Source of the DNA: a virus
Lineage: Duplodnaviria; Caudoviricetes
Length of the DNA: 28,714 bases
Reading direction: 5' to 3' (one strand)
Virus record (IMG/VR): IMGVR_UViG_3300032225_000633
Coordinates: 1 to 28,714 of that record
Shown: positions 4,970 through 23,758 of the stretch, piece by piece
Numbering within the stretch: the stretch's first letter is position 1
Layout: each line of letters starts with the position of its first letter
The notes under the pieces: model-generated
Seen by the model: the letters and a program-made list of their open reading frames with translations, nothing else
Told to the model about the DNA's origin: nothing
Databases searched by the model: none
Position numbers and translations under genes: made by a program

Positions 4970-5109
4970 GAGAACGCCACCGTAAAGACATAGACAAAAC
5001 CGAGCGCGACCATGACGAAAAGAAACCCGAGCACACTCCAGGCGACAAGTCCCCACCAAATGACGCGCGGGCCCTTCTGAAACGTCGTGCGCCTCAACGC
5101 TTTTCCCAT
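4966..5109 (-). CDS. Small membrane protein (47 aa)
   Basis: GGAGG SD before ATG 5109; basic N-terminus, then hydrophobic WWGLVAWSVLGFLFVMVALGFVYVFTVAF. Confidence 0.65.
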   Translation of the reverse strand: MGKALRRTTFQKGPRVIWWGLVAWSVLGFLFVMVALGFVYVFTVAFS

Positions 5110-5243
5110 CGTTGCACCTCCAAATAGTCCATAAGAGCCGCCAGAATGAGCGTAGACACGTTTACGCCCCGTTTCTGTGCAATTACCTGCATACGTTCCC
5201 ACAACGCATCAGGAAGGCGCACAGAGCGCACTCGACTAGTCAT
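5094..5243 (-). CDS. Ribbon-helix-helix (CopG/Arc-like) DNA-binding protein (49 aa, not in ORF track)
   Basis: MTSRVRSVRLPDALWERMQVIAQKRGVNVSTLILAALMDYLEVQRWEKR: beta strand SVRL, helix, G-x-x-x-S turn, helix; GGAGG SD. Confidence 0.85.
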   Translation of the reverse strand: MTSRVRSVRLPDALWERMQVIAQKRGVNVSTLILAALMDYLEVQRWEKR

Positions 5244-5975: not shown

Positions 5976-6056
5976 TTACTGACATGACTCGCAGTTCATA
6001 GCATCCTGCGGGTCAATCGGGCACGAATATCCGCCGACATTCTCTCGTTCGCTCAC
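5976..6056 (-). CDS. 26-aa peptide with C-terminal C-x9-CxxCQ motif
   Basis: MSERENVGGYSCPIDPQDAMNCESCQ; GTG overlaps the endolysin stop (GTGA). Confidence 0.6.
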   Translation of the reverse strand: MSERENVGGYSCPIDPQDAMNCESCQ

Positions 6057-9350: not shown

Positions 9351-10855
9351 TACGCCCCCACGAACACAGGGCCTGAAACGCGCTCATACTTCTTGATAGC
9401 ATCCACGACAGCGCGCCCAATATCTGCCGACGTAGAAAGCCCGCCGTTCACTACGACGTTGTATGTTATGCCGCCTCCACCGCCGCCCATGATCGTGCCG
9501 AGTTTGTCGAGTGGGATAACCGCTTCAGCCTGACCTGCCTCACCGATAGTGGCCATCGTTCCGCCAGGGCGAGGCATGACGATTCCACCCGTGGCAAGTT
9601 TGAGTCCGCCCGAACCAACAGACATGCTCACGCGCGAAAGAGGCTTAGAGGACGTAATGCCAAAGAGTTCGTTCCAGTTGTCAATGAGGTGCCGAACGCC
9701 GTCAGCCGTGACATAGATAAGCTGTTTCAAAACACCGAGTGGGCCCATGAACATGTTGATGTTCGGCTTCCCCTCCTCCATGAGTTTGTATTGATCTCGC
9801 CACCAGCCGTTAATGTTCTTTATGGCGTCACCGACAAAAGACAACACATCGCCCACAGTTTTCATCATGTCCTTGAAGCCTGAACCCTTCGAGGAACCTT
9901 CCTTGAACATATCCGCAATGTCTTTTATGAAGTGGGCTACGCCCGGCGCGACTGCGACAATGCCCGGCAGAATCTCCTTCATAAGAGACATCATCGACGG
10001 GAGAAGTTCCTTTATGGACGGGAGAATATCGACAAACGCTTTACCTAAGTCGACAAGAAACTTTTGGAATGTCGGGTCAGCAACCATCTCGGCAAGTGCA
10101 TCACGAATAAGTGGCACCACCTTTTCAAGTGCGGGCATAAGAGCATTACCGACAATTTCTTGAAAGTTTCCCCACATAACGGTCAGACGATCAAGGGCAG
10201 AAGCCGCCTTAGGCCCCATGCCCGCATATTTTGCGTCGAGCTGGTCGATTAGATACGCCTGTGCTTCGATTTCTTGCCCATTGTCTAGAAGGGCCTGATA
10301 CGTCTTTTGTTGTTCGTCAGTAAACACGATGCCTTGACGCGTAAGTTTCGACATAGCGGTTTCGGAATCGCCCGAGATCTTGATAAAGGCGAGTCCGATT
10401 GTTTCAACGTCTTTACCCGTTCCCGCTGCTACGTTCGTCGCGACCTCCGCTAGATGTTCAATGCCCTTCGTGCCAAGTGCTGCGAGAGTTGGCACAGCCA
10501 TCCAAGTTTTTTCAATAGAGAGCAAAACCTCATCGTCAATGCCGACAAGTTCGCCCAAAGTCTGCGCATGATCCTTCAGCGCGCCGGTAGCCTTCTGAAT
10601 GTCCTTATCGGTGTTACCGAATACGCCCGCATTCTTTGCCGCCTGATCGAGAGCCTTCCCAACTTTCCAAGACTCATCGGCGGCGCGAAGTGATGACGCA
10701 GCGAACACACCAGCGGCGATACCGCCCGCAACAAATGCACCGGCGAGCAACGTGCCAGCATTGCGCGCAAAACCGCCGAGACGGTCAAGCCCTGTCTGAG
10801 CATCACGAATACCGCTTGGGTCAAACTTAGAAACGATGGGAAGGCGTAAAGGCAT
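9350..10855 (-). CDS. Tape measure protein (501 aa)
   Basis: Ala/Gly-rich and helical; C-terminal LATGGIV...TMATIGEAGQAEAVIPL motif; position after the chaperone genes. Confidence 0.9.
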   Translation of the reverse strand: MPLRLPIVSKFDPSGIRDAQTGLDRLGGFARNAGTLLAGAFVAGGIAAGVFAASSLRAADESWKVGKALDQAAKNAGVFGNTDKDIQKATGALKDHAQTLGELVGIDDEVLLSIEKTWMAVPTLAALGTKGIEHLAEVATNVAAGTGKDVETIGLAFIKISGDSETAMSKLTRQGIVFTDEQQKTYQALLDNGQEIEAQAYLIDQLDAKYAGMGPKAASALDRLTVMWGNFQEIVGNALMPALEKVVPLIRDALAEMVADPTFQKFLVDLGKAFVDILPSIKELLPSMMSLMKEILPGIVAVAPGVAHFIKDIADMFKEGSSKGSGFKDMMKTVGDVLSFVGDAIKNINGWWRDQYKLMEEGKPNINMFMGPLGVLKQLIYVTADGVRHLIDNWNELFGITSSKPLSRVSMSVGSGGLKLATGGIVMPRPGGTMATIGEAGQAEAVIPLDKLGTIMGGGGGGITYNVVVNGGLSTSADIGRAVVDAIKKYERVSGPVFVGA

Positions 10856-11394
10856 TAGACGTTCTCCAATTCAACGCTCACGCGGTCAGTCCACTTCTCG
10901 ACCAAAGTCTCAGCCAAGCGGTAGATGGTTGCCTTGAAAGGCATAAAGGCACGGTACACATAGCGTCCACCCTTATCCCATCCCGGCACACGGAGATTTA
11001 ACATTCCGACGAACCACGGGCCACGCGCATCCGTAGGGGAACCGTTCGAGTTCTTAGAGCCAGCAAACTCAGCAATGTACATACCGCGAGACGCACGGCC
11101 CGCATCCACGTTGATTGTTACCAGGTCACCCCATCCAAACCGCGACCTGCCGGGACGGGTTGAAACTGTGGCCTTCACGTTGCCCCACTTTGTATTGCCA
11201 TTATGGTTTGTCATGCCAGACAATGGCGCGCCGTTTTGGTTAGCTGTTGCCGCAATATCGCGTGCTGTGCCGCCAATACCTGACCGCATACTGCGCCCAA
11301 GATCATTCAGCAATTCTTTATCGACGCTGCGAAGAATGCGAGCGACTTTTGCCATGTCGCGCGCGTCTACTTCTGCTCGAAACGAAACTGCCAT
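10855..11394 (-). CDS. Putative HK97 gp10-like neck/tail completion protein
   Basis: Basic protein with YIAEFAG and GRYVYRAF motifs, located in the tail module. Confidence 0.55.
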   Translation of the reverse strand: MAVSFRAEVDARDMAKVARILRSVDKELLNDLGRSMRSGIGGTARDIAATANQNGAPLSGMTNHNGNTKWGNVKATVSTRPGRSRFGWGDLVTINVDAGRASRGMYIAEFAGSKNSNGSPTDARGPWFVGMLNLRVPGWDKGGRYVYRAFMPFKATIYRLAETLVEKWTDRVSVELENV

Positions 11395-11403
11395 GACTCA
11401 AGT

Positions 11404-11574
11404 CTACTGACCACCCGCATTTCGGGCACGAGACACAGCGACTAGGTAGCGTTGCATAGTCCACAACATCCGCGGCTCAAGTTGCATGAGTTCACGCGGT
11501 GAAAGGTGATATTCGTGAGCGAGTTGGGCCATCATCCAATGAAGCGAATAACCGCCCAACGGTTCTATTTTTTT
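11404..11574 (-). CDS. Tail assembly chaperone -1 frameshift extension (GT)
   Basis: Slippery A AAA AAA at 11568-11574; -1 frame reads IEPLGGYSLHWMMAQLAHEYHLSPRELMQLEPRMLWTMQRYL... to TAG at 11404. Confidence 0.85.
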   Translation of the reverse strand, partial: KKIEPLGGYSLHWMMAQLAHEYHLSPRELMQLEPRMLWTMQRYLVAVSRARNAGGQ

Positions 11575-11813
11575 GCGTCGCCCTCACGCACAATCTGGAT
11601 GCTCTCGACCCATGCCTCGAAGTCGAGTTCAGTAGCCTTCGTGCGTTTCTCGACTGAGTAAGCCAGGAAGAAAAGGTGCGTGAGTTTGGGCGTAGCCAAA
11701 CCTGCAATGCTCATATCAAAGTGCGCCTCGAAGCGCATCAAATCGACAGCGAGCGCGCTAACGGTTTTCGTGGTGCCGTCAGCGTAGACGATTTCAAGTT
11801 GAATAGGATCCAT
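11565..11813 (-). CDS. Tail assembly chaperone (G)
   Basis: Follows the major tail gene; ends GCA AAA AAA TAG. Confidence 0.85.
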   Translation of the reverse strand: MDPIQLEIVYADGTTKTVSALAVDLMRFEAHFDMSIAGLATPKLTHLFFLAYSVEKRTKATELDFEAWVESIQIVREGDAKK

Positions 11814-11829
11814 GACCCTACTCTAATAC

Positions 11830-12237
11830 TTAGACGGTGCCTCGGGTGAATGCGCCAGCGGCAGCCCACGTTGTGGAGAATGTCAGCAAGTCGCCAACAC
11901 TTCCCGCGACGGGCGAGTAACCGCTGAGAACAACGGGGCACGTCCAGCGAGGGTTCGTTGCACTTGCGGCGGTCCCGTTCGGGATGATGACAACCGTGCC
12001 CACGGCACCCCATGCGCTTGAGAGCGTGGCATCAACCGAGGCGGCGAAGTCTTGGTGCCAGTCGAGCTTCACGGAACCATCCTTCAGGCCCGCGACGCGC
12101 GAACGCCATCCAGCAGTGCCGAAAGCAGTTGTTTCAATCTCATCCGCGCTCTGGTCAATTGTGACCGCGCCAATGTGATCCGAAAAATCGGTACCGTTCA
12201 CGGTCACATATGCGTTCGTGAAAACGAGTTTAGCCAT
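11830..12237 (-). CDS. Major tail (tube) protein
   Basis: VTVNGTDFSDH...IETTAFG...RVAGLKDGSV...PVAGSVGDLLT; GGAGA SD; position. Confidence 0.85.
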   Translation of the reverse strand: MAKLVFTNAYVTVNGTDFSDHIGAVTIDQSADEIETTAFGTAGWRSRVAGLKDGSVKLDWHQDFAASVDATLSSAWGAVGTVVIIPNGTAASATNPRWTCPVVLSGYSPVAGSVGDLLTFSTTWAAAGAFTRGTV

Positions 12238-12248
12238 TTTGTTTTCTC

Positions 12249-12650
12249 CTAGTTTCCGTAAACGGTTACAGTAAAGTCGGCTGCCAAATAATTGACTTCT
12301 CCAATGGTAAGGCTACCAACGCTCGACATAGCCTCAACACGCACGTCATAGCAAGAACCGCCTAAAGTCTTGTCAGACTCAATAGCATTCTTAATCGCGC
12401 CTGCACCAGGTGAAATGTATCCGTCAAGAATGCTCTGTGCAGTTCGCTCACTCATCCGACCCGCAAGAACCGTAAGCATGAACGTATATGTCGTGAGACC
12501 GCCGCGCAACGCACCATCATAAGCAACAGACTGCAAACTAATGACTGCTTGTGGTGGGTTCACTTGCTCGGGCAAACTCGTGGCAATACGCAAGCCTGAA
12601 AGCGTCGCAAGATTTGTGCCTAACCCTGCACGGATCGTCGCAATACTCAC
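12249..12650 (-). CDS. Tail terminator protein
   Basis: IRAGLGTNLATLSGL...AIESDKTLGG...ADFTVTVY; directly upstream of the tail tube gene. Confidence 0.75.
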   Translation of the reverse strand: MSIATIRAGLGTNLATLSGLRIATSLPEQVNPPQAVISLQSVAYDGALRGGLTTYTFMLTVLAGRMSERTAQSILDGYISPGAGAIKNAIESDKTLGGSCYDVRVEAMSSVGSLTIGEVNYLAADFTVTVYGN

Positions 12651-13252
12651 GCGTAAGTCACCTTCATATAAGACGCAAGAAGTGCCTGCACGTCGGAGTC
12701 AACCCGGCTGACTCGAATCGCCCCGAGATCGCCCATGCCCGCAATACCCAATGGGCTGTCATATCGTTTGAAAAGACGAAGTGACATCAAAATACAGGCC
12801 ATGCGCACATCCATAGGGATAGCTGACCAGCCAAAAACTCCAACAACCTGAACCGTATTCGGATGAAGCATTGGCACGACGTAGTTACCGTATGGGAACA
12901 CGTTGTTACCCACGGCCCGAATCCGCGTGAAAGGCTGAGCCAAACCGCCCACGATTCCGTTCGTTGGTTCGAGCTGGTAGTCACTCGCGCCCCATGTCGT
13001 ATCCCATGAATTGTCAGTAGACGTTTTCAAGCTGGTGATAGACACGAGGTCATCAATCTGCACAACGTAAGAGTTATCTGGCACGAACGTACGAGTAGCC
13101 GTCGTGGAATAGAACACACGCTGGCAGTATGAATCAATCTCGCGTGAGGCGGCTTCAATGGCAATTTCTAAAAGCGCATCGTCAGTTGTGTCTGAAATGT
13201 GCAGGGCTTGTTTCACCTGATAAAGAGTGCAGTACCCGTTTGTTATTGCCAT
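12647..13252 (-). CDS. Head-tail adaptor (gp6/gp15-like)
   Basis: YCTLYQVK...DDALLEIAIEAASREIDSYC...GWSAIPMDVRMAC. Confidence 0.85.
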   Translation of the reverse strand: MAITNGYCTLYQVKQALHISDTTDDALLEIAIEAASREIDSYCQRVFYSTTATRTFVPDNSYVVQIDDLVSITSLKTSTDNSWDTTWGASDYQLEPTNGIVGGLAQPFTRIRAVGNNVFPYGNYVVPMLHPNTVQVVGVFGWSAIPMDVRMACILMSLRLFKRYDSPLGIAGMGDLGAIRVSRVDSDVQALLASYMKVTYA

Positions 13253-13256
13253 GCTG

Positions 13257-13679
13257 CTATTTTAGCCGTGCTCGTATCGCCGTCGACGAGACACCCACCG
13301 TATAAGGAAGAAAAACTAGGGCGATGTTGCGTTTCTCCAGATACTCGCGCGTCACGTTTATTTGCTTCAAATAATCACGCCCCATCCAATCGGAACCGAT
13401 AACGAGCAAGTCCGGCATGACCTCATCAATGAGAGGTTTACAATCTTCATTCCCTTTGTTTATGAGAACATCATCCACCCATCGAACGGCCCGCAACATT
13501 TCCAGACGTTCGACGAGCGTCATCACGGGATATTTACCTTTGTAGCGTTTTATGAAGTCATCGGTGTTCACGCCAACAGAAACGTGCGCCCGTGCGCCGC
13601 CGAGTTCCACGCACCGTTCGAGTAATGCAACGTGTCCAGGGTGCAAAAGGTCGAACGTGCCGATAGTCAAAACTTTCAT
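13257..13679 (-). CDS. Cytidylyltransferase (TagD/RfaE domain II family)
   Basis: GTFDLLHPGH (HxGH), VGVNTDDF, ERLEML, GSDW, YTVGVSST; start ATG 13679 (ATGA overlap). Confidence 0.9.
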   Translation of the reverse strand: MKVLTIGTFDLLHPGHVALLERCVELGGARAHVSVGVNTDDFIKRYKGKYPVMTLVERLEMLRAVRWVDDVLINKGNEDCKPLIDEVMPDLLVIGSDWMGRDYLKQINVTREYLEKRNIALVFLPYTVGVSSTAIRARLK

Positions 13680-14395
13680 GGCCTTATTCTGTACCATTCT
13701 GACGGGAAATTGCCGTCTTGCGCCCATTTGGGCAACGCAGACAAATCCTCATATTCGGTGAACCAATCGCCCGCAAGATCATGCCCATGAGTCCAGCAAT
13801 GAGCCAATTCCGCGTCTAAGTTGTCGGTGACAAGTTCCGTATGAGCAAAACCGCGCACTTTATTTATGAGATAGTCGAGACTTCCCATCGACGTGAAGTG
13901 CCATCCGCCCTCAACAATCGGCAGCGTTTGACGCGACCAGCGCATCGAGTTCACCGACTGACCGCGAAAGTCTGACCAGCGACCCATGACGCCCGTGAGT
14001 TCCATCTTGTGAAACCAGCGGAGGCTCATATGATACTTAGGCATATTCCAGGCGCACAATGATTCTTCCCACCTGTTGGGCCATTCGTCCATGTCGAAAA
14101 GCCCCACGAGGTCATCATCTGCAAGATTCAGCGATTCAAGAACGACGCCTACCTGATCGCGCTGCCAATGGTCACAGCCCCATGCATCGAGCGCGGGCAT
14201 GATTACCTGAACGTATTTGATACGGTCATGGAACGCCGCGAACCGTTCCCAATTCTCCGCGAGCGTGTAGGGCTTCGATGTTCCCGTGAATGTTTTGTCA
14301 GCCTCGACAATCACCCACAAATCCGCGTCCACCGTGTTGAGACGGCCCTCCAAAATGTCGAGTTCGCCGCCAAATATTAGCCCCTCGACTTTCAT
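13676..14395 (-). CDS. Glycosyltransferase, GT17-like (beta-1,4-GlcNAc transferase family)
   Basis: ELDILEGRL...VIVEADKTFTGTSKP...QRD...DMDE...GWHFTSMG...KVRGFAHTE; start ATG 14395. Confidence 0.8.
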   Translation of the reverse strand: MKVEGLIFGGELDILEGRLNTVDADLWVIVEADKTFTGTSKPYTLAENWERFAAFHDRIKYVQVIMPALDAWGCDHWQRDQVGVVLESLNLADDDLVGLFDMDEWPNRWEESLCAWNMPKYHMSLRWFHKMELTGVMGRWSDFRGQSVNSMRWSRQTLPIVEGGWHFTSMGSLDYLINKVRGFAHTELVTDNLDAELAHCWTHGHDLAGDWFTEYEDLSALPKWAQDGNFPSEWYRIRP

Positions 14396-14910
14396 TGCCA
14401 AGTGCCCTTCCATTTGCGGAAGTATTGATTTTCAAGAACGAGATTCATGCGCCCAAACTTCTCACCCATGTGCCCGTCAGCGTCGGTCAGATCGGGAAAG
14501 AGAACCGGAACGCTACCCGCTTTGTCGGCATAGTCGCGTGTCCACATAATCTCATTCGCGATACTGCCCATTTTGGAATCCACCAAAGGCCAGCCCACAA
14601 GTTTGTCGAGCACTTTACGCTCATATACGCCCATATAAGAGCCGTACACGCTTGGGTCGCCTAAGAGTGCCACAGAGCCGGGGAACTCGTCTAAACGCCC
14701 CCAGAAGCCCTTAGAGAGCACTTCGGCTGAGTCTTGAAGGAACAAGAAGCGTTCTAGCGTCGTATTTCGGTAAACCCACTCGATTTTGCCAAGTTCAAAA
14801 CCGCGTTCGAGCGAAACGACAAGAACATCACGGCCCGTAAGACTCTGGAGACATTGCGTTAGCCATTGTTCGCGCCCCGGCGTAGTAGCAACAACCGTTG
14901 TCAATCCCAT
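14392..14910 (-). CDS. Putative GT-A fold glycosyltransferase
   Basis: VVATTPGREQWLTQCLQSL N-terminus; FLFLQDS at the DxD-equivalent position; inside the GT cluster. Confidence 0.55.
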   Translation of the reverse strand: MGLTTVVATTPGREQWLTQCLQSLTGRDVLVVSLERGFELGKIEWVYRNTTLERFLFLQDSAEVLSKGFWGRLDEFPGSVALLGDPSVYGSYMGVYERKVLDKLVGWPLVDSKMGSIANEIMWTRDYADKAGSVPVLFPDLTDADGHMGEKFGRMNLVLENQYFRKWKGTWQ

Positions 14911-15545
14911 GAGAGATCACGACGTGTAGCCAAGTCCCATTCGCCGCCGGTCAGAATCTCCGCTGTTGCTCGGGCTTCATAGGTTTCCTGGTTCGCCTTG
15001 AACGTCTTATAGTTCAGAATGTCGAAACCAGATTCAAGTGTCGCAGAGTTGTCGTGGTGAACCTTTGCCGGGATGTTTTCGAGTTCCACGTCGTGAGCAC
15101 TTGCGCGGCGTTCGTAATCGTTGTCCTCGAAGTACGCTGGGTGCATGAGTTCGGTGAATAGCCCGACCTTTTGCACGACATCCTCACCGAGAGCGAATGC
15201 CGCCCACTTCGGTTGCACATCCATGAATTGCAACGCATCGGAACGCAAAGAGCCAGCCATTGTTTCGAGCGCGCCCGCCTCAAACATCACGTCATCGTTC
15301 ACAATCAGCCAGGAGGGTGCGAACGGCGAGCACTTGATAATCAAATTCCACGATCCAGCCACGCCAAGATTCTGTGGCAACTGAATGTGATAAATACGCT
15401 GGACGTTTTCGGGTTTCGTCGGTTCCCATCCGTCAGGCTTGTTATCAATAATCATCAAATCTTGCACCGGGTAATCAATGCTCGCCAGCATCCGGTCACA
15501 CAGGTCATGGCGCGTCAGAGTAGGAACGCCGAGAAGGGGAATCAT
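14901..15545 (-). CDS. Glycosyltransferase, GT2-like
   Basis: IIDN, NLGVAGSWN, LIVNDD, VGLF..PAYFEDNDY, HHDNS; start ATG 15545. Confidence 0.85.
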   Translation of the reverse strand: MIPLLGVPTLTRHDLCDRMLASIDYPVQDLMIIDNKPDGWEPTKPENVQRIYHIQLPQNLGVAGSWNLIIKCSPFAPSWLIVNDDVMFEAGALETMAGSLRSDALQFMDVQPKWAAFALGEDVVQKVGLFTELMHPAYFEDNDYERRASAHDVELENIPAKVHHDNSATLESGFDILNYKTFKANQETYEARATAEILTGGEWDLATRRDLSWD

Positions 15546-16756
15546 GCAAAAACGCCTTTCCAGAATGGCAGCCACTTGTCGTTGAAAACTTTATCAGCGT
15601 CGAAGTCTTGCGCGAAAGCAATTGACTTCTCAGACACGCCTCGGTTTTGGTAGGCGAGTTCGAGCGCGCGAACAATCGAAGAAACATTGGGAATCTGAGA
15701 AACGGCCTTCAGTTGCTCGTTCCACCACGGCTGCCCCTCGACTAGGTAGCAGTCCTCAGAAACGAGGTCGGGCGACGCCGCCCATGATGACGTGATAACT
15801 CGCACCCCACACGCTTGAGCCTCAAGGCTCGTGAGTCCGAATCCTTCGCCCATGTTGGCATGAAGCAACACGTCGAATGCGGAGTAAATTGCCGCCATAT
15901 CTTCGTCCGAATATCCCAAGCGGTGTTGCACCGGATCAGGGAACACAACTGCGCCAGGTTCTAGCCCGAACGCTTGAGCGAGCATCGGCAACGTGAACCC
16001 ACCCATGACGGGCGATGGGTCGCAATGAACATAGAGCACCGCGTCGGGCCGAGTCTGACGGAACAATGCAAACGCTGCAAAGTTTTCGGTGAATGACTTT
16101 CGGTGAACCATGCCATTTGCTTTGTTCGCGGAAACCATGCCCACAAGATAGGCGTCTTGATTCTTTCCCAAAATGTATTCGCGCCCCGTCATGTCCAAGA
16201 GTTTCATGCGTTCCGTGCGCTTGTAAGTATGCACGTCAATGGCGTGAGGGACATAGGTCGATTCGATGCCCGCCTTTTCGAGTTGTCGCTGACCATGCGG
16301 AGACATGGTGACCGGCGTCACGTTAGGACGGCGTAGAAAAGATGCCACAGCACCCGGAAGGGAAACATGATCGAGAGGAACCCACGACACAATCGGGATA
16401 TCTTTTTGCCCGACGCGGAACGTGTTTGCCATTTGCTCAAACACCCAAACGTCATACAGCGTCATTAGAACCGTCTCGCGGTCATGCGTATTATCGAAGT
16501 GCTGGAACCATCCCGGCATCACGTCGGCGGAGTATGGATGAAAGCCTTTGGGGTAATGCGGTATGTGATGTTTGCCAACTTTGACTGTGCCGATGTTGCC
16601 CTCTAGCCCGTAGTTGCTCAGGCTCGCGCACTTAATCCCGTGGCGTAGGGCCCGTTCGAGAAACTGTGCGCCTTGCGTTCCATAGCCCGTAGGAATGCCC
16701 GGTGTGTTACTCGCGAGAGCGATTGCGCCATTGACTTGCTCGTAAACCTTTCCCAT
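15542..16756 (-). CDS. Glycosyltransferase, GT4-like (GT-B)
   Basis: PTGYGTQ, YVPHAID, IYSAFDVLLHANMGEGFGLTSLEAQACG (E-x7-E). Confidence 0.9.
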   Translation of the reverse strand: MGKVYEQVNGAIALASNTPGIPTGYGTQGAQFLERALRHGIKCASLSNYGLEGNIGTVKVGKHHIPHYPKGFHPYSADVMPGWFQHFDNTHDRETVLMTLYDVWVFEQMANTFRVGQKDIPIVSWVPLDHVSLPGAVASFLRRPNVTPVTMSPHGQRQLEKAGIESTYVPHAIDVHTYKRTERMKLLDMTGREYILGKNQDAYLVGMVSANKANGMVHRKSFTENFAAFALFRQTRPDAVLYVHCDPSPVMGGFTLPMLAQAFGLEPGAVVFPDPVQHRLGYSDEDMAAIYSAFDVLLHANMGEGFGLTSLEAQACGVRVITSSWAASPDLVSEDCYLVEGQPWWNEQLKAVSQIPNVSSIVRALELAYQNRGVSEKSIAFAQDFDADKVFNDKWLPFWKGVFA

Positions 16757-16771
16757 GAGTTAAGCCTACAC

Positions 16772-16806
16772 AAAGAAAATCCCCCCGCCCGAAGGCGAGG
16801 GGAAAT
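16772..16806 (-). terminator. Intrinsic terminator after the capsid gene
   Basis: CCCCTCGCC-TTCG-GGCGGGGG stem with UUCG tetraloop, followed by ATTTTCTTT. Confidence 0.85.
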
Positions 16807-16818
16807 CCTTTAGCGTTG

Positions 16819-17946
16819 TTACGCGGTGGTGAGGTACTTTACCGCGCCGGAGGACTTGAGTCCCGAGGCGAGGCGCAGCGTGGTGCGGTATGCCGTTACG
16901 TCCTGGTTGAAGAAGGCGTCAGCACTCGTGGCCACCTGAACGTTGTTGTGCGTGATAGCAACGGCGGAGTAGTCACCAAAGATGACCGATTTCGCGCCCG
17001 ATGACACATCAACCATTGCGGGGTTTTCGAGAACGGGAACACCAGCGAACGTGTCCGGTGCGCCAGCACCGCCGGTACCGACCTGGTACAAGTACGCGCC
17101 AACGTTGTCCTTGAGCTTGCGAACAAGTCCGAGCGTCTTGGTGTTCATCATGTAGGCACCGTTCGGACGGTAGGCACCATCGACCGAGTACTGAAGGTCG
17201 ATCAAAGCATCCGACGTGAGAACAGCAGTTCCCGAAGCAACACCCGAACCAGCGGCAGCAACAACCGTCGAAGTCGCGGTTGCATTTGCCCAAGTTCCGA
17301 TGGCGTTTCCAGCCTGAGATGCAATCTCGTTCACGATGTCAAAGCCCGCGTCGGTGATGAGTTCGTTCGCAATGAGAGCGAGGAACGCGCCCTTGGTAGG
17401 GGACAACAGAATGCTGGAGAACGTCGGTTCGCTCTGCGAAATAGCAGAACCAGCCGTTGTAACTGCAGCAGTCGAGTAAGCGGTCATAACCGGCAGTCGC
17501 AGGTCATTCGCGCTCGAACGCACGATCACGTCAGCAACGTTCAGGAATGGGCCAACCTTGCGAGCAATCATCCACAGGCGGTCATAGAACGAAACCGGCA
17601 CGGTGTCCGAAGAGTTCACGAGCGTTGCGCGCTTCTCAAACTCGAACGAGCGAAGCTCACCCGAAGCAAGAGCACGGAAAATGTCGGCTTCAGAACGAGC
17701 CTCGACAGTCTGCGGAACGAACGAACCGGCAGCCTGTTCGGCTTCGGCACGACGAACCTCGGTGCGCTCAGCAACAGCAATGGAACGCTGTGCGTCCTCA
17801 ATAGCCGACTCGATGCGGTCAATGGTTTGGTTTTCTTCAGCGGTCAGGCCACGCTTCTCAGCCTCGGCAGCGTCAATGATGCTGCGAATCTGGTGAACGA
17901 GGTTAGCCTTGACCTCTGACTGTGACTTGATGAAATCGCTCATCAT
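16819..17946 (-). CDS. Major capsid protein, HK97 family, with N-terminal coiled-coil (delta) domain
   Basis: AEAEKRGLTAEE delta domain; ANELITD; YMMN...RKLKD..GAYLY; VIFGDYS; FFNQD.TAYR; GGAGA SD before ATG 17946/17943. Confidence 0.95.
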   Translation of the reverse strand: MMSDFIKSQSEVKANLVHQIRSIIDAAEAEKRGLTAEENQTIDRIESAIEDAQRSIAVAERTEVRRAEAEQAAGSFVPQTVEARSEADIFRALASGELRSFEFEKRATLVNSSDTVPVSFYDRLWMIARKVGPFLNVADVIVRSSANDLRLPVMTAYSTAAVTTAGSAISQSEPTFSSILLSPTKGAFLALIANELITDAGFDIVNEIASQAGNAIGTWANATATSTVVAAAGSGVASGTAVLTSDALIDLQYSVDGAYRPNGAYMMNTKTLGLVRKLKDNVGAYLYQVGTGGAGAPDTFAGVPVLENPAMVDVSSGAKSVIFGDYSAVAITHNNVQVATSADAFFNQDVTAYRTTLRLASGLKSSGAVKYLTTA

Positions 17947-17972
17947 ATTCTCCAATCAAAAAAGGTTTTAGG

Positions 17973-18020
17973 GGATTGGTCGCGCTAACGCTGAACCGTG
18001 ACCGCGCTAACGCTGAATCC
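17973..18020 (-). promoter_or_regulatory. Structured capsid 5' leader with a 15-bp direct repeat
   Basis: CGCGCTAACGCTGAA at 17981-17995 and 18003-18017; nested GGAUU/AAUCC and GGUC/GACC stems on the mRNA strand. Confidence 0.65.
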
Positions 18021-18023
18021 TTA

Positions 18024-18042
18024 TTAGGTTAGGCTTACCTAA
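18024..18042. promoter_or_regulatory. IdeR/DtxR iron box overlapping the capsid promoter -10
   Basis: TTAGGTTAGGCTTACCTAA matches TWAGGTWAGSCTWACCTWA at 19/19 positions; -10 TAACCT (18026-18031), -35 TTGAAC (18050-18055), 18-bp spacer. Confidence 0.85.
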
Positions 18043-18070
18043 CTAAAGCGTTCAAAAGACACGCCGAATA

Positions 18071-18106
18071 GCAAAACGCCCGAGTCCAGCACCCGAGCGT
18101 TATGCC
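18071..18106 (-). terminator. Probable terminator hairpin upstream of the capsid promoter
   Basis: AACGCTCGGGT-gctgg-ACTCGGGCGTT (two G-U pairs) followed by TTGCTATT. Confidence 0.55.
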
Positions 18107-18119
18107 TCATAAGGTTACG

Positions 18120-18458
18120 TCAAAGAACGTGAAGCTTCAATTTGCGTTTTGCCATATCCAGCGATCGCGCAGCCTGAGCCTCGGCTTCGAGAATGGTTAT
18201 TTCGGGGATAATCCATAATTTGCAAACCGCTTCAGGTTCGATAACGCCAGAGACAATTTGACAGCCGCCGAGTTCGTCATAAAACACGCAGTTAGAACAC
18301 ATCAAGCCCTGAGCCTTGAAAGGGTTCGCGCTCGCCGGTGCATAGTGCGCACCATTAGCGCCCGTAGTTTGGTCAAACTTGCCATGCTCGACAGCGAGTT
18401 CTGCCAGGTCATTCGCCTGTTCTTGCTGACGTTCGTTCAGCAATTCATACTCACCCAT
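18120..18458 (-). CDS. 4-Cys HiPIP-like protein with putative capsid-targeting C-terminus
   Basis: CSNCVFY...CQIVSGVIEPEAVCKLW resembles the HiPIP Cys pattern; TAATG-coupled to the protease. Confidence 0.65.
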   Translation of the reverse strand: MGEYELLNERQQEQANDLAELAVEHGKFDQTTGANGAHYAPASANPFKAQGLMCSNCVFYDELGGCQIVSGVIEPEAVCKLWIIPEITILEAEAQAARSLDMAKRKLKLHVL

Positions 18459-20092
18459 TAGAACCTCTCCAAAAGGTCGAGTTTCTTCTTCTTCAGCGCG
18501 AGAAGGTCGAGGTCGCCCACGATCTCATCAGCTTCATCCGCTGGTGCTAGGCGGTCAAGAACCTGCTCAAGTAGGCGGCGGTCATCCGTGGTGAGGCTCT
18601 CCGCGCCTTCTTCAATACGAGTGAGAACATCCTGCAAGGCGTCAGCATCAACTTCGGCACGTTGTGCGACCTTATCAAGTGCGCGAACGCTCACCGTGCC
18701 ACCCGTTGCGGCGTAAGCGGGCCATGCGACAACGCTCACCTCGTGCAAGCGAACGGACTTCAGTGTGCGCGTCGAACCATCCTGCGACCAAGAATCACCG
18801 CCCGACGGAACTGAGAACCCGAACGACATTGCGTCGACAATTCCCTTTGAAATAAGTTCCCGAGCGTCACGCCCGGCGGTGGTATCAGGAAGGACAGCCG
18901 TGACCTTTAGTCCGCGCTCATCTTCAATGAGAGAAAGTGTCCCGGATCGTGTCGAAGCGAGCACCGCGCCAGAATCGTGATTCCATAGCATTTTGACGTC
19001 ATTGCGTGAACGCAACGAACGCTTGAAGGCACCAGGCGCGATAATCTCCGTAAAAGGCAGCGGTTCGCTCGGTGAGTTGAAAAGCGCGGCATAGCCGGTA
19101 AACGTGTTTCCGTCACCCTCAGCGCGAAGCTCAATAGTTGTCGTAAACTCGCGCGTTTCAATCTTGCCCATGTCTGCAATTTTACCTTTCCGGTATGCGT
19201 TCATCTCTTCGACTCCCTGCGCGTCAAGATTTCGCGGGTCAACAGCCTCAATGCCGAGTTCGTCATAGTACGCCAGCGTTTGCGGGTCATTCTCTACGGC
19301 AACCGTGACGTTATACGTTTTCAGTAATTCCTCAGCCGTGGCTTTTTTGTACTCAGGTGAATCAGCCGTACTCGACGGATTCATAATGAGGCGCGAGTAA
19401 GTAATATCCAAGTCTTTAAGTTGTTGCACAGTTGCATCACGCTCAGATTCTGGGCGCCCCGTGACAATGAACAATGCGCCAGGCTGATCCTGTAAGAACA
19501 TCCACGTTTTCTCAACACGACGCCCGCCCTGAATGAGAGTGCCATCAATGTCTGAGATTTTCACCGTAGGCCCGTCAGCATTGCGCGTTTCAGCCTCAAT
19601 CCGTGCCAACAGTCTGTCTGCGTAATCTTTCGTCCGCATGGCGCCATCCTTTCCACCTTGAGAACCCCATAAAGCATGAGCAACAACGCCCGGCGACGGG
19701 TAACCATCCGCACCCGGTTGCGCGTCAGGTGCGTTCAAATCCACCATGTGCCGCGCAATCCACGCCGAGATTCTTTGCCACTTGTCTGCTGAAACTTCGC
19801 CTGAAGCCATAAGGCGCGCTTCGCGGACCGTTCCATCGGTTACTCCATCACCGGCAAGCCCATCTTCAAACCACGTCACGCCCTGTTCAGCGGCATCACG
19901 CATAAATTGTGGGGCCGAAAGGTCAGGCATGGCGCGCTCACCAATAAAAGGCTCGTCGGTTGCGAGTGAAATTGCCACCGCTTGCTTGATAGCGTCACCT
20001 TTGGTTTTGTGGCAGCCGAAAACTTTGTCCGACGGATCAACGACGGCCCACCCGGAACAATCTGGGTTATTCTGTGTAATTGAATACGGCAC
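18458..20092 (-). CDS. Multidomain prohead protease: N-terminal modules + HAD phosphatase-like domain + HK97-type protease
   Basis: Protease: FTGYAALFN, EIIAPGAF, LWNHD, MSFGF, LHEVSVVAWPAY. HAD: SDIDGTL, IVTGRPE, YK, VEND. Confidence 0.9.
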   Translation of the reverse strand: MPYSITQNNPDCSGWAVVDPSDKVFGCHKTKGDAIKQAVAISLATDEPFIGERAMPDLSAPQFMRDAAEQGVTWFEDGLAGDGVTDGTVREARLMASGEVSADKWQRISAWIARHMVDLNAPDAQPGADGYPSPGVVAHALWGSQGGKDGAMRTKDYADRLLARIEAETRNADGPTVKISDIDGTLIQGGRRVEKTWMFLQDQPGALFIVTGRPESERDATVQQLKDLDITYSRLIMNPSSTADSPEYKKATAEELLKTYNVTVAVENDPQTLAYYDELGIEAVDPRNLDAQGVEEMNAYRKGKIADMGKIETREFTTTIELRAEGDGNTFTGYAALFNSPSEPLPFTEIIAPGAFKRSLRSRNDVKMLWNHDSGAVLASTRSGTLSLIEDERGLKVTAVLPDTTAGRDARELISKGIVDAMSFGFSVPSGGDSWSQDGSTRTLKSVRLHEVSVVAWPAYAATGGTVSVRALDKVAQRAEVDADALQDVLTRIEEGAESLTTDDRRLLEQVLDRLAPADEADEIVGDLDLLALKKKKLDLLERF

Positions 20093-21462
20093 TAATTACC
20101 GCCAGGGTAAACGCTTGTCGGGTTTTCCGGGTCAATCATGGCAACCTGTTGCAACTGAGCCGAAGGCAAACCGGTGTGGATGATGTCGAGTCCGAGCAAC
20201 TTCGCCACTGATGCCGGATCGTAACCAACTGAGACGAGTTGCTGAGCCATAGCGACTCGCTCTTTGTCTCCCGAAAGTGGCGCGGCGTCAATGTTTACCT
20301 GAGCCAAAGGCACACGAGGCTTATCGGCTGAAACGTCATCGACTCGGCGCATATTCTCGACGCGGCGAACGTCGTTAATAGACATCCAGCCCGCTTGTAG
20401 AGCCGATGAATAGGCTTGAGTTCTTGCCGCCAAGTCTGCGCGCACGAGAGCGTCCATGTTGAAACGAATAAACGCTGTTTCACCGCCCGGCGTCCTAGAC
20501 ATAAGTTTGCTAAACGCGTTTTCAATCTTTGCCACAAGAGGACGCAAAGACATGGCCACGAATTGAAGGCCCTGCTGCTCGACGCTTGAGTAGGACATAC
20601 CGCTATCGGTAACGCCGAGAAGATATGGAGGGATTCCGAACGCGCGGGCCACATCAAGCACAGCAAACTTGCGCTGCTCGATTAGCCCTGCCTTATCCGG
20701 GTCGATGCCGGTGCTCCTCCATTGTGCACCACCTGTGAGAACGCCCGTCTTTGCGGAACGACGCCAGCCACCATGCCGACGATCAACACCGGCAGCCAAC
20801 TGCTCAGCCTGCTCTTGCGTGAGAGCCTGAGGCACCTCGATAATTCCAGCCATGTTCACGCCGGAACCGAAGAACGTAGCCGTAAAGGATTCAAGGGCCT
20901 TTGCCAGCGCAAAGTTCTCTTTCAATGCATCAACGCGCGACGTGCCACGAACCGAACCGGGCTTGAGAATGTCCACGACGTGCACAATGTTCTCGCTCGA
21001 TAGTTCTTCCTTCGTGGAAGTAATCGTGAACGTGAGGCGTCCGAGCGCGTTGCGCTTTACCTCCACGTCCATCGGGTTGAGAACAACGAGGTTCACAACT
21101 TCGCCCGAGCTGTTCGAGTAAACGCGCACAAACGCATTGCCTTCAAGCATGAGGGACACAATGACCGACGAATAGAAAGCCGTGTAGCCAACAAAATCGA
21201 CATCCGGATTCTGAACCCACGCCGGCGCGCCACCACCCTGGCGGAACGGGTACAGTTCACCGTCACGACGAATAAAGCAATCGAGAGGCAGCGTTGAAAC
21301 TGAATCGGCGTAAAGCGAAATCGCGCTAAACACGGCGTTGATCGTGAGGGCCGAATCTGCGTCTACCGTGACGCCCGCAAGCGTTCCCTTCACCATGTCA
21401 CCGCCCGAAGCGAACACAGACTGAAACGACGTTGCACGTCTTTCCAAAAGTTTTTCGAACAT
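20092..21462 (-). CDS. Portal protein, HK97 family
   Basis: SLMLEGNAF, LNPMDV, VARAFGIPPYLLG, SYSSVEQ, GWMSINDVRRVEN. Confidence 0.95.
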   Translation of the reverse strand: MFEKLLERRATSFQSVFASGGDMVKGTLAGVTVDADSALTINAVFSAISLYADSVSTLPLDCFIRRDGELYPFRQGGGAPAWVQNPDVDFVGYTAFYSSVIVSLMLEGNAFVRVYSNSSGEVVNLVVLNPMDVEVKRNALGRLTFTITSTKEELSSENIVHVVDILKPGSVRGTSRVDALKENFALAKALESFTATFFGSGVNMAGIIEVPQALTQEQAEQLAAGVDRRHGGWRRSAKTGVLTGGAQWRSTGIDPDKAGLIEQRKFAVLDVARAFGIPPYLLGVTDSGMSYSSVEQQGLQFVAMSLRPLVAKIENAFSKLMSRTPGGETAFIRFNMDALVRADLAARTQAYSSALQAGWMSINDVRRVENMRRVDDVSADKPRVPLAQVNIDAAPLSGDKERVAMAQQLVSVGYDPASVAKLLGLDIIHTGLPSAQLQQVAMIDPENPTSVYPGGN

Positions 21463-21593
21463 TACTTAGCCACCGCCAAACCGATAAGCACCAAACCAAT
21501 GCCGGCGGCGATAATTCCAGCCGGTAGCCAAATGAGCGAGACGCCGGCAACAATGACTCCGACACCTGCCACCTGCAAAATTGTGGAAACCAC
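21462..21593 (-). CDS. Small two-helix membrane protein between terminase and portal (43 aa, not in ORF track)
   Basis: MVSTILQVAGVGVIVAGVSLIWLPAGIIAAGIGLVLIGLAVAK; TAATG coupling to the portal gene. Confidence 0.8.
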   Translation of the reverse strand: MVSTILQVAGVGVIVAGVSLIWLPAGIIAAGIGLVLIGLAVAK

Positions 21594-21601
21594 GACGCCG
21601 C

Positions 21602-23128
21602 CTAAAAGTAAAATTGTGGAATAATGTCGGGCTCAAGTTTAGCCGACGCCCTATGCCATGCCATCATCAACGCTACGGCGAGGTCAATTTTTAGTTTCGG
21701 ATTACGGTAATCCTTCGTGAGCCTCGAACCGCCTTTTGAGTCCGCTTTAAGAATGCAATTATCCATGTGTCGAGCCATTGCGGGGTCACCGTCATGCACA
21801 AACTTCTTTGACATAATCGCCTCGAATAATCGGGCAGTCGCTGGCACTTGATAGGCGAGCGTTTGCGGAAACTCGACAACTACAATGCCAGCCTGTAGCC
21901 ATTGCATCATCTCGTCTTGCCAATAGGTCGGGTCACACACCATCTCTTTGCAACCAGGATTCTCGCGCACAAAATCGAGAACATAATTCGCAACGGCCTG
22001 TTTATCAATCACCCATGAATCATCGTTCACGGCGAAATCCTTTTCCCACGATCCGGCGCGCAGAACGCGGAACACATCGCCGTCAAAACGCGGGAGAATC
22101 ACCGCGACGAGGGCCGTCGAATCGTTCTTCCATGAACCGTCGAAGCCTAAGTAGTATTCATCACCCGGTTCGAGGCGCACAGTCTCGTCCGCAAGTTCAT
22201 CCCACGCGCCAGCCGGAAGCCATGCATTCTTGACATTCACCCATTGATTCAATCGCTTCGTTCTAAACTCATGCTCAGGTGTACGCAACACAGCACTAGC
22301 AAAATCATCACTAGCGACCAAATCATCAAAGCCAGGATTAGCAATCTTCCACGTTGCCGGGTCTTTGTAATCAAGTTCCGGCGGGGCTTCCCACCATGCC
22401 ATAAAAAACGACGGGTCAATTACTTCTCCACTCGCGCAGCGTTTTCCATATTGATACAACTGGTAGGCAATACTCTCACCGCCACTAACATCGGTTCGCA
22501 GGCCCGCCGTCGTAATCGCGACGAGCTGAGCGAGAGAGCCACGGTTACCCATCGCGAGAGACATAACGTCAAATAATGTTCGGTCACGGTGAGCGTGGAG
22601 CTCATCCGCGATAATCCGTGACGGATTCATTCCTTCCGCGCTAAAACTCTCACTAGCAATGACGCGCAAAACGGACTGAGAGCCAGGCACATAAATTGAA
22701 TCCCTGTACACGGTCACATTGTCCGCGAGTTCCGTAGCCTGAAGCATTCGTTTGGCTTCTCCAAACACGATGCGCGCCTGATCGCGTGTTGCCGCGCAGA
22801 CTACGACCTCGGCCCCTTGAATGCCCTCGAATAAAAGCGAATAAAGTGCAATCGCAGCCGACGAGAGAGCCGACTTACCTGATTTTCGTGGCATGCCAAT
22901 TAGAGCCGTTCGTGCCAGGTATCCGCCGTTCTCATCTCGCGCATATAGATGGCGCAAAAGTTCCTTCTGCCATTCACGTAAAACCAAAGGCTCACCAGCA
23001 CGGCCCGCAATACCGTCTTTACCGATAGAGCCAAAAGCCTCAGCAAAACGCACAGCGTGGCGACCATCGGAACGCGCTAAAGATTCCTCATCGACAGGCG
23101 TCAAATACAGCGGGGGCCAACTACTCAC
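21602..23128 (-). CDS. terL: Terminase large subunit
   Basis: LREWQ, MPRKSGKS (Walker A), IIADELH (Walker B), ITTAG, GFDGS..NDSTA, KIDLAVA. Confidence 0.96.
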   Translation of the reverse strand: MSSWPPLYLTPVDEESLARSDGRHAVRFAEAFGSIGKDGIAGRAGEPLVLREWQKELLRHLYARDENGGYLARTALIGMPRKSGKSALSSAAIALYSLLFEGIQGAEVVVCAATRDQARIVFGEAKRMLQATELADNVTVYRDSIYVPGSQSVLRVIASESFSAEGMNPSRIIADELHAHRDRTLFDVMSLAMGNRGSLAQLVAITTAGLRTDVSGGESIAYQLYQYGKRCASGEVIDPSFFMAWWEAPPELDYKDPATWKIANPGFDDLVASDDFASAVLRTPEHEFRTKRLNQWVNVKNAWLPAGAWDELADETVRLEPGDEYYLGFDGSWKNDSTALVAVILPRFDGDVFRVLRAGSWEKDFAVNDDSWVIDKQAVANYVLDFVRENPGCKEMVCDPTYWQDEMMQWLQAGIVVVEFPQTLAYQVPATARLFEAIMSKKFVHDGDPAMARHMDNCILKADSKGGSRLTKDYRNPKLKIDLAVALMMAWHRASAKLEPDIIPQFYF

Positions 23129-23558
23129 CGCGTGCCTTCATGTCCATGAGTTCTTGAAGCTTCGATTTCGTGCGAGCTGAGACAAGTCCAAGTCGAGTGC
23201 GATCCGCTGGCGTAAAGCCGAGAAGTGAAAGTCCGTTCACGATAGCCTTCTCAGTCTCAAGCAAACTCATATTCACCACGCGCGACTCCGGCTCATCCCA
23301 AAACCGCCGTGAGAGTTCATCGCGCCGGTCAAGTTGGCGGCACACCTGCGCCACGAGTTGCGTGTCCGTGCGTATTGAAATCCAAAGTTCGCCCGCGCCA
23401 AAGATTTTATTCCACAGCTCAAGGCCCGACTCACGCAAGTCCTCGGGCGGCTCAACATAGCCATATTCGAGAGGCGCAACACCGTCTACTCGAATAGGTC
23501 GTTTGCTCGGATTGCCCTGCGCTATCTGCAATTCAACGGGCTTCGGCGGGTTTGGCAT
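23121..23558 (-). CDS. terS: Terminase small subunit (P27-like)
   Basis: MPNPPKP...GNPSKRP...LGFTPADRTRL; GGAGG SD before ATG 23558. Confidence 0.88.
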   Translation of the reverse strand: MPNPPKPVELQIAQGNPSKRPIRVDGVAPLEYGYVEPPEDLRESGLELWNKIFGAGELWISIRTDTQLVAQVCRQLDRRDELSRRFWDEPESRVVNMSLLETEKAIVNGLSLLGFTPADRTRLGLVSARTKSKLQELMDMKARGE

Positions 23559-23569
23559 GGTTCCTCCAA

Positions 23570-23617
23570 CCACAACATCTAGTGGTCAAAGCCTAGCGTA
23601 ACCACAACATATTGAAT
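23570..23617. promoter_or_regulatory. Tandem NrdR-like boxes flanking the terminase promoter -10
   Basis: CCACAACATCTAGTGG (23570-23585) and CCACAACATATTGAAT (23602-23617), 32 bp apart; -10 TAGGCT at 23590-23595 lies between them. Confidence 0.8.
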
Positions 23618-23624
23618 CGGTTTG

Positions 23625-23730
23625 AACTGCGGAGGCGCGAAATGTGTGGGGCTCGGGGTGCTGTCCGCAACGCTTTTCAGAAAAAAACCCACCCCCGTTG
23701 ATGCCAGGTAGGGCCTACCAATATCGAGGC
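23625..23730. other. Probable cos / packaging-initiation region
   Basis: Non-coding interval between HNH and terS with GGGGGTGGG and T-run elements, the usual place for cos in phages with this gene order; the exact cut site is not identifiable. Confidence 0.4.
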
Positions 23731-23732
23731 AC

Positions 23733-23758
23733 AAAAAAACCGCTGTTGTTCAGCGGTT
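23733..23758 (-). terminator. Intrinsic terminator after the HNH gene
   Basis: AACCGCTG-aacaa-CAGCGGTT followed by TTTTT. Confidence 0.85.

Follow-up and report, generated by a model that had tools for sequence, protein, structure and literature searches.

The DNA analysed here, IMG/VR record IMGVR_UViG_3300032225_000633 (28,714 nucleotides in all, termed here the window), holds the complete genome of a phage, 28,591 bp plus a 123-nt terminal repeat. Two promoters of its head genes carry sites matching operators of bacterial metabolite-sensing repressors: a tandem pair of NrdR boxes at the terminase (packaging) promoter and an IdeR/DtxR iron box at the capsid promoter. Taken together, these sites likely constitute a timer, to which a probability of about 0.62 is assigned here, by which repressors of the host would govern when the head genes are expressed. 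This is narrower than the proposal of an initial annotation, made from the sequence alone, that three host sensors (NrdR, IdeR and WhiA/WhiB) gate virion morphogenesis: its NrdR and IdeR sites hold up, while its WhiA component is tentative at the capsid promoter and weak at two others.

The timing of late-gene expression is poorly explained in small actinophages that have no known late activator. If the proposed timer is real, then host repressors released by replication would provide one at zero coding cost, tying virion output to the deoxynucleoside triphosphate (dNTP) and iron status of the cell, both of which vary widely in natural waters.

The phage is a small, uncultured siphophage of the cos (cohesive end) type, about 28.6 kb in length. 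Because its terminase large subunit (TerL) is closest, among named phages, to that of Pontimonas phage phiPsal1 (MG835450; 49% identity) and because the nearest named relatives of its purine nucleoside phosphorylase (PNP) are mostly from Micrococcales and Kineosporiales, the host is likely an aquatic member of the Microbacteriaceae. Pontimonas salivibrio, the host of phiPsal1, encodes NrdR, IdeR and WhiA (PMC6106888, supplement file 7); phiPsal1 itself was lost from culture (PMC6106888).

The packaging promoter

All annotated genes lie on the minus strand, so that upstream corresponds to higher coordinates. The elements at the packaging promoter, and the genes that follow it, are:

23733-23758 (-): intrinsic terminator that follows the HNH gene and insulates the packaging promoter; hairpin with a U7 tail, z -3.1
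23648-23657 (-): putative cos site with a 10-nt 3' overhang, from the ends of a contig of run X1 and the starts of relatives' contigs
23620-23631 (-): cos-adjacent motif with core GCAGTTCA
23602-23617 (strand not applicable): NrdR box 1; 6 of 6 key positions, core 88% AT
23590-23595 (-): predicted -10 element of the packaging operon (TAGGCT), between the two boxes
23570-23585 (strand not applicable): NrdR box 2, covering the predicted start site and adjoining the Shine-Dalgarno sequence
23121-23558 (-): terminase small subunit (TerS), start ATG at 23558 as set by relatives; phrog_83
21602-23128 (-): TerL; phrog_9, Pfam TerL
20092-21462 (-): portal protein, by PHROG and Pfam scans
18458-20092 (-): prohead protease with accessory N-terminal domains, including a HAD-like one, by PHROG and Pfam scans

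According to the published rules, an NrdR operator consists of two boxes separated by a 15-16 bp linker, each box having C4, A6, A8, T9, T11 and G13 and an AT-rich core, that is, at least 63% AT between C4 and G13 (PMC13584703). The pair in the window, which the initial annotation had placed correctly, has a 16-bp linker, all 12 of the 12 key bases, and 88% and 75% AT between C4 and G13 in boxes 1 and 2, respectively. Box 2, moreover, agrees at 15 of 16 positions with a synthetic box that is bound by Streptomyces coelicolor NrdR with a dissociation constant of 46 nM (PMC13584703). Such a pair arose in 2 of 300 shuffled genomes. The boxes bracket a TANNNT element, which in many relatives that have no boxes lies about 6 nt before the leaderless ATG of terS. 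These features make the pair a well-supported candidate operator, and it is quite likely that NrdR would bind there and repress the terminase promoter. Patterns for LexA, CRP, HrcA and DnaA are absent from the window. A search of bacterial genomes for an exact copy of the pair returned four matches, none of which was traced to a gene for ribonucleotide reductase (RNR).

The 28,581-nt contig of run X1, which may come from the source of this DNA, terminates at 23647 and 23658. These ends point to a 10-nt 3' cos overhang 30 bp before box 1; contigs of several relatives, as well as the phiPsal1 record, start at about the same place. The cos-adjacent motif, which lies upstream of most terS genes whether or not NrdR boxes are there as well, is a probable terminase-binding site.

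The capsid promoter

18071-18106 (-): terminator-like hairpin before the capsid promoter; z -6.3, kept in close relatives
18058-18065 (+): WhiA-type 8-mer GACACGCC, 26 nt upstream of the capsid -10 element
18024-18042 (strand not applicable): IdeR/DtxR iron box, a 19-mer matching the consensus, over the capsid -10 element (TAACCT, 18031-18026)
17978-18019 (-): two bulged hairpins in the leader RNA of the capsid gene (18000-18019 and 17978-17997), found family-wide
16819-17946 (-): HK97-type major capsid protein; phrog_10, PF05065

The iron box shows no mismatch to the degenerate consensus for such sites, and it was matched in none of 300 shuffles of the genome. Against the strict published consensus it agrees at 18 of 19 positions (PMC8464063), so that the box reported by the initial annotation stands with a single mismatch. 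Among 401 actinobacterial genomes, in which ten unpublished ones count only as misses, exact IdeR boxes occur in eight, compared with none for the reversed control; they precede genes for pyridoxal decarboxylase (5), DUF2470 (2) and an amidase (1). The pyridoxal decarboxylase genes are DesA-like, and all three kinds of gene may have an iron-related role. The very 19-mer of the window also occurs in one actinobacterial genome (L519). The box is thus well supported as a candidate site at the capsid promoter, and IdeR binding and repression there may be predicted with considerable confidence. Both of the hairpins that the initial annotation took as insulating terminators, at 23733-23758 and 18071-18106, do fold.

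The element most widely kept at the capsid gene is the pair of leader hairpins. Across 19 hairpin units, all 133 of 133 cells are paired and five of the seven pairs show compensatory change; because the units were chosen by a pattern demanding the inner three pairs, only the outer four are unbiased. The paired hairpins are kept in relatives down to about 42% capsid identity (L023, L026, L033, L041, L056, L437, L441 and L522), and an Rfam search gave no match. They probably serve a phage protein as a translational operator.

A WhiA contribution was proposed on the basis of GACAC, which on the coding strand reads GTGTC and lies 26, 25 and 25 nt upstream of TANNNT at the promoters of the capsid gene, the head-tail adaptor gene and the gene at 10855-11394 (termed here the 10855 gene). 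These positions are correct, and three such spacings were reached in 1 of 300 shuffles (mean 0.40), the spacing having been picked after the fact. At the capsid promoter the 8-mer is identical to the 8-bp mycobacterial WhiA motif (PMC13473873); nine of 21 close relatives have it exactly and 12 have a GTGTT variant, at a spacing of 25-27 nt, so that GCGTGTY is kept in all 21, and the GTGTC is absent in phiPsal1. The adaptor and 10855-gene sites match only the 5-mer and fall inside coding sequence: the former, in Gly-Val-Ser codons, recurs in a single row (L018) among 12 distinct ones from relatives, and the latter (at 11432), in Val-Ser codons, keeps its 25-nt spacing in all six close relatives compared and is spaced at 34 nt in phiPsal1. 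Positional conservation apart from coding constraint was not found across the three promoters, and GACAC is missing at three of the six structural promoters. WhiA targets may occur in either orientation, and GACAC alone predicts poorly, there being 15,116 copies in Streptomyces venezuelae (PMC3781837). WhiA may, tentatively, act at the capsid promoter, and is unlikely to act at the other two.

Distribution among relatives

The initial annotation had proposed positional conservation upstream of terS and the capsid gene in related phages as a check on these sites. The capsid GCGTGTY is kept in all close relatives compared, as described above; the NrdR and IdeR sites recur, each in a minority.

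Upstream regions of terS were compared across 41 rows; apart from two that were too short, these represent 39 distinct relatives. The full NrdR pair is present in L021, in phiPsal1 and in L561, the last of which was recovered by the NrdR motif itself; box 2 accompanies an altered box 1 in L020 and L049, one box is present in L023, and 33 relatives have none. Box 2 is identical in L020, L021 and L049. In phiPsal1, whose TerS is 51% identical, the pair has diverged in sequence and yet occupies the same place, keeping 11 of 12 key positions and the 32-bp geometry. On a TerS tree (from which L055 and rows shorter than 70 residues are omitted), the box-bearing alleles fall into two distant clades, beside leaderless alleles.

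The capsid promoter was compared in 21 close relatives (23 rows, including two duplicate contigs). Four of these (L001, L003, L004 and L433) have the IdeR box, and the others differ from it at 8 or more positions. A 28-nt block containing the box is identical in these four, whose capsids are 80-93% alike, and the box is absent from L427, the nearest relative by capsid (97%). Contigs from runs X3, X7 and X10 carry another allele of the promoter, with changes clustered in 18019-18053 and the flanks kept. The capsid tree, which omits L002 and L006, has few supported branches.

Several non-IdeR alleles of this promoter (L005, L007-L016 and L429) contain TTTAG-N7-CTAAA, in which the arms are fixed and the spacer is variable. 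As a candidate host operator, the palindrome GTTTAG-N7-CTAAAC was rejected: it occurs in 2 of 401 actinobacterial genomes, fewer than its reversed control.

Similar sites elsewhere among viral contigs

The NrdR pair pattern is common among viral contigs: it matches about 960 stretches (an estimate from 8 of 64 parts, with 120 matches seen at 104 distinct sites) versus 84 for a scrambled pattern, an eleven-fold excess. When the spacing was left free, the resulting 121 loci clustered at periods of 30, 31 and 32 bp (11, 18 and 25 counts) and at 41-42 bp (11), with about 2 counts per period elsewhere. The matches lie outside long reading frames in 88 of 111 cases, versus 33 of 83 in the control, and two consensus bases left unspecified by the pattern are completed in 96 of 120 matches, versus 9 of 84. 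A stricter arrangement, in which the boxes flank a -10 element as they do in the window, was found at 65 loci, 44 of them with a period of 31-33; these precede genes for TerS, scaffold, portal-like and pyrimidine-dimer glycosylase proteins.

Neighbours of the pairs were identified from 88 phage proteins out of 118 candidates, plus one added, near-duplicates and visibly spurious reading frames having been omitted; the filter applied to the control was slightly stricter. They include NrdD (a positive control), dCMP (deoxycytidine monophosphate) deaminase and repressor/antirepressor regions, as well as four TerL, four TerS, and five portal and scaffold genes, of several families, at 14 loci.

A few arrangements recur. 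In a separate phage family (L538, L562, L570, L572, L574-L577 and L583) the pair is upstream of a scaffold-like gene, often directly 3' of an AGTTCAA that resembles the cos-adjacent motif of the window. In L527, L534, L553 and L571 it flanks a TAGGCT -10 element upstream of a gene resembling pyrimidine-dimer DNA glycosylases. In low-GC, prophage-like contigs (L098, L099, L103, L114, L124, L135, L143, L152, L172, L173, L180, L184, L198 and L210) it lies between divergent genes, small repressor-like ones and those of antirepressor regions, where a dNTP input to the lysis-lysogeny switch is possible.

An IdeR scan of viral contigs with the exact pattern alone found 41 loci, which were assessed by inspection; three of them are this same capsid promoter. 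The remainder, in about 37 other contigs (within L057-L097), frequently come in pairs or close to the end of a contig, where genes are sparse.

Proposed mechanism and alternatives

NrdR binds DNA when loaded with dATP and ATP (PMC9110341), and IdeR when loaded with iron (PMC8464063). Both promoters of the window appear to be of the host sigma-A type and would fire early. In the proposed timer, NrdR loaded with dATP and ATP would hold terS, terL and the portal and protease genes off at entry, and Fe2+-loaded IdeR would do the same for the capsid gene; release would come as replication lowers dATP, as iron becomes scarce, or as newly made genomes outnumber the repressors. Such titration would also derepress the host's RNR and iron-uptake genes. 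WhiA/WhiB may, rather tentatively, add activation at the capsid promoter only. Since the operators lie in short promoter blocks that are exchanged between similar phages, gated and ungated alleles coexist within the family; these natural alleles of both promoters are ready-made controls, and hence the idea is directly testable.

Two infection studies bear on this proposal. During lytic infection by phage SpSL1, the pneumococcal NrdR regulon is strongly induced from 10 min onward, and most so at 50 and 90 min (PMC6755750). The SpSL1 genome contains no NrdR pair by the rule used here; therefore replication alone appears able to lift NrdR. In Rhodococcus infected by phage WC1, iron-import transcripts rise and bacterioferritin transcripts fall, changes that were not attributed to phage sites (PMC10986025).

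Several observations weigh against the proposed timer. Both sites are minority alleles (3 of 39 relatives for the NrdR pair, one of the three having been recovered by the motif, and 4 of 21 for the IdeR box), so that the family evidently replicates without them, and no fetched relative has both. The critical G13 of box 1 is gone in L049, whose TerS is 97% identical, and in a contig of run X15, and box 1 is displaced in L020. Derepression by SpSL1 is already evident at 10 min (PMC6755750), sooner than a late timer would be expected to act. The short U tail of the 18071-18106 hairpin means that read-through could bypass IdeR. Because the host of the window is itself deduced, the presence of NrdR is known only for the host of phiPsal1. 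The phage also appears to have regulators of its own, an Arc-like protein and a possible helix-turn-helix (HTH) protein, described below. Finally, packaging genes are not enriched per NrdR match: head or packaging genes adjoin 14 of 120 matches and 9 of 84 control matches. Seven of those nine control loci belong to one repeated portal family; given the control rate, the excess of NrdR pairs lies in number and in diversity of families rather than in the rate per match.

The alternative that survives best, though it is unlikely, is that the sites are decoys: they would bind NrdR and IdeR and, with growing numbers of genomes, sequester them, so that the host makes more dNTPs and takes up more iron; any effect on timing would be incidental. 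The near-optimal match of the sites would suit a decoy, as would the many exact IdeR boxes of other viral contigs that, by inspection, lie in gene-free stretches or arrays, and so would the shift of Rhodococcus to an iron-uptake state upon WC1 infection (PMC10986025). A decoy need not, however, sit exactly on a -10 element or start site, as the single site of each kind does here, and SpSL1 induces the NrdR regulon with no pair at all.

It is quite unlikely that the sites are merely passengers, that is, promoter fragments captured from a host or another phage and kept for promoter strength or by hitch-hiking, with repression neutral and decaying. Such capture would account for their patchy spread on the TerS and capsid trees and for the loss of G13 from box 1 in a very close relative, and a recent spread could explain why the IdeR block is identical. 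It fits poorly with the divergent phiPsal1 boxes retaining the 32-bp geometry, with the eleven-fold excess of NrdR-spaced pairs across viral contigs, and with a box 2 that stays intact while the linker changes.

The full model of the initial annotation, in which NrdR, IdeR and WhiA/WhiB (the last at three promoters) gate all morphogenesis and PNP, the high-potential iron-sulfur protein (HiPIP)-like protein, a CxxC peptide and WhiB act as effectors, is improbable. It draws on the rarity in shuffles of three GTGTC sites at 25-26 nt from real -10 elements and on the exact capsid 8-mer, with GCGTGTY conserved throughout the close relatives and either orientation permitted (PMC3781837); it is weakened by the adaptor site being found in a single relative row, by the 11432 site following Val-Ser codons and shifting in phiPsal1, by the three structural promoters that lack a 5-mer which is in any case a poor predictor (PMC3781837), and by effectors that do not co-occur with the boxes.

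That the sites instead serve phage-specific proteins (terminase or HNH at cos, or the Arc-like, HTH or WhiB proteins) and owe their likeness to host boxes to chance is highly improbable: the NrdR pair does lie 30-78 bp from cos and the phage does encode DNA-binding proteins, yet the conserved cos-adjacent motif is a separate sequence that occurs with or without boxes, L022 has the same ribbon-helix-helix (RHH) and HTH genes and no boxes, and the matches are nearly exact to two experimentally defined host operators.

Extending the host-repressor timer beyond this genome is more speculative, and on present evidence doubtful: small lytic phages without a late activator might build their late switch from host metabolite-sensing repressors, with NrdR gating packaging in hundreds of unrelated phages, with NrdR and IdeR sites serving as interchangeable cassettes that define dNTP-gated, iron-gated and ungated ecotypes, and with this genome requiring both signals before heads are made.

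Relation to known systems

NrdR operators are known from the RNR promoters of S. coelicolor (nrdRJ and nrdAB) and Escherichia coli (nrdHIEF) (PMC13584703, PMC9110341). The pair in the window is like these in having two 16-bp boxes, a 16-bp linker, all key bases and a predicted overlap with the -10 element and the start site. It is unlike them in that its putative target is the terminase-portal-protease operon of a phage, next to cos, and that no RNR gene was recognised in the genome. The parts of PMC13584703 and PMC9110341 that were available do not mention phage. Likewise, the capsid site resembles established iron boxes in being a 19-bp element of near-consensus sequence over a -10 element (PMC8464063). 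As for phage DNA, neither packaging or capsid promoters with NrdR, IdeR or WhiA sites nor NrdR control of phage genes were reported in the literature searched, which covers few subscription journals; yet many viral contigs contain the NrdR site pattern. A host iron repressor site on phage DNA is known from corynephage, whose tox gene has a DtxR operator. In contrast to that operator, which serves lysogenic-conversion cargo, the site described here would serve a core virion gene, in a genome with no recognised integrase, and is an exchangeable allele.

Host regulators control phage development in other settings, as with CtrA in alphaproteobacterial phages, Spo0A in phi29 and LexA in GIL01 (PMC9437464). 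The present sites are similar in that they place host factors on phage promoters and would couple the lytic programme to host state; they differ in that the factors are metabolic repressors (responding to dATP and Fe2+), in that separate head promoters are involved, and in that their presence varies among close relatives. As at promoters co-activated by WhiA and WhiB (PMC10243135, PMC3781837, PMC13473873), the exact 8-bp motif lies upstream of the capsid -35 region and the phage encodes a WhiB; unlike at those promoters, the GTGTC is on the coding strand (the less common case in PMC3781837), only one of the three is intergenic, and the motif is absent in distant relatives. With phiPsal1 the window shares gene order, an HK97-type head, a glycosyltransferase cluster, WhiB, the cos-adjacent motif, the terS NrdR pair and the capsid leader hairpins, whereas phiPsal1 has no IdeR box, capsid GTGTC, or PNP or HiPIP-like match. 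What appears to be new is that a single genome has predicted sites for two host repressors at consecutive head promoters, that close relatives exchange these sites as alleles, and that a named phage shares the NrdR layout.

Phage regulators and proposed effectors

The genome encodes, in order, HNH, TerS, TerL, portal, protease and HK97-type capsid proteins, the glycosyltransferase cluster, tail and lysis proteins, and then WhiB, PNP and replication proteins. No integrase was recognised among the 46 proteins scanned (PHROG, Pfam), as had been stated initially, and no RNR gene in the genome. Genes of possible regulatory or effector function are:

18120-18458 (-): HiPIP-like four-cysteine protein; PDB HiPIP 3h31, E 0.004
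5976-6056 (-): 26-aa CxxC micro-ORF after the lysin gene, overlapping its stop codon; weak phiPsal1 match
5094-5243 (-): Arc/CopG RHH regulator; PHROG E 5e-6, Pfam RHH_1 above cut-off
2213-2434 (-): phage WhiB; PF02467
1140-1904 (-): PNP; PF01048
792-1034 (-): HTH-like protein, a lead only; atlas score 0.88 to HTH/sigma-r4 clusters

The Arc/CopG gene, which has relatives in L022 and L023, was overlooked in the initial annotation and means that WhiB is not the only recognisable regulator of the phage; the HTH-like lead may add another, although neither Pfam nor PHROG scans gave it an HTH match.

Effectors matched to the host sensors were not borne out. PNP was rejected as a partner of the NrdR allele, because the two occur separately: L022 has the PNP gene and lacks the boxes, and in phiPsal1 the reverse is the case. 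The HiPIP-like gene and the IdeR box, considered as a linked iron module, coincided perfectly in the first 18 loci; this was broken by L427, which has the gene and no box, and by the full set, in which the promoter of the HiPIP-like locus carries the box in 3 of 80 cases and lacks it in 77. The HiPIP-like protein itself shows HiPIP-type spacing (C54, C57, C66, C79 and W82 are invariant in 56 sequences) and matches PDB HiPIPs with E values of 0.004-0.04; its score against PF01355 is 13.1 bits (gathering cut-off 22), and its AlphaFold model has a predicted local distance difference test score (pLDDT) below 50 over the domain. It occurs in 254 viral stretches as a common module of phage head regions, often (as in L457-L513) in two adjacent divergent copies. 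The 26-aa CxxC peptide is probably the one described initially as RNR-tail-like. No RNR link was found: the peptide has no match in 251 actinobacterial genomes, Pfam or PHROGs, a search in which a 26-aa query has little power. It is weakly matched 3' of the phiPsal1 holin gene (E 3) and in Clavibacter phage CN1A, unannotated in both.

Other structural promoters

16763-16803 (-): capsid terminator and leaderless -10 element (16768-16763) of the glycosyltransferase cluster; no regulator box
13259-13294 (-): leaderless -10 element (13264-13259) of the head-tail adaptor gene, with GTGTC at 13294-13290, within codons of the cytidylyltransferase gene
11820-11825 (-): leaderless -10 element of a probable tail assembly chaperone gene; no GACAC
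11401-11436 (-): leaderless -10 element (11406-11401) of the 10855 gene, with GTGTC at 11436-11432 in Val-Ser codons

These four internal -10 elements are conserved, leaderless and free of NrdR and IdeR sites; therefore only the head and packaging genes would be gated, rather than virion morphogenesis as a whole. At 11404-11813 (-), two short frames have a layout resembling that of a tail assembly chaperone followed by the extension that frameshifting adds, and seven consecutive A lie close to the first stop. Between the capsid and adaptor genes, a cluster of glycosyltransferase and cytidylyltransferase genes (13257-16756, -) has its own leaderless promoter and possibly functions in glycosylation of the virion.

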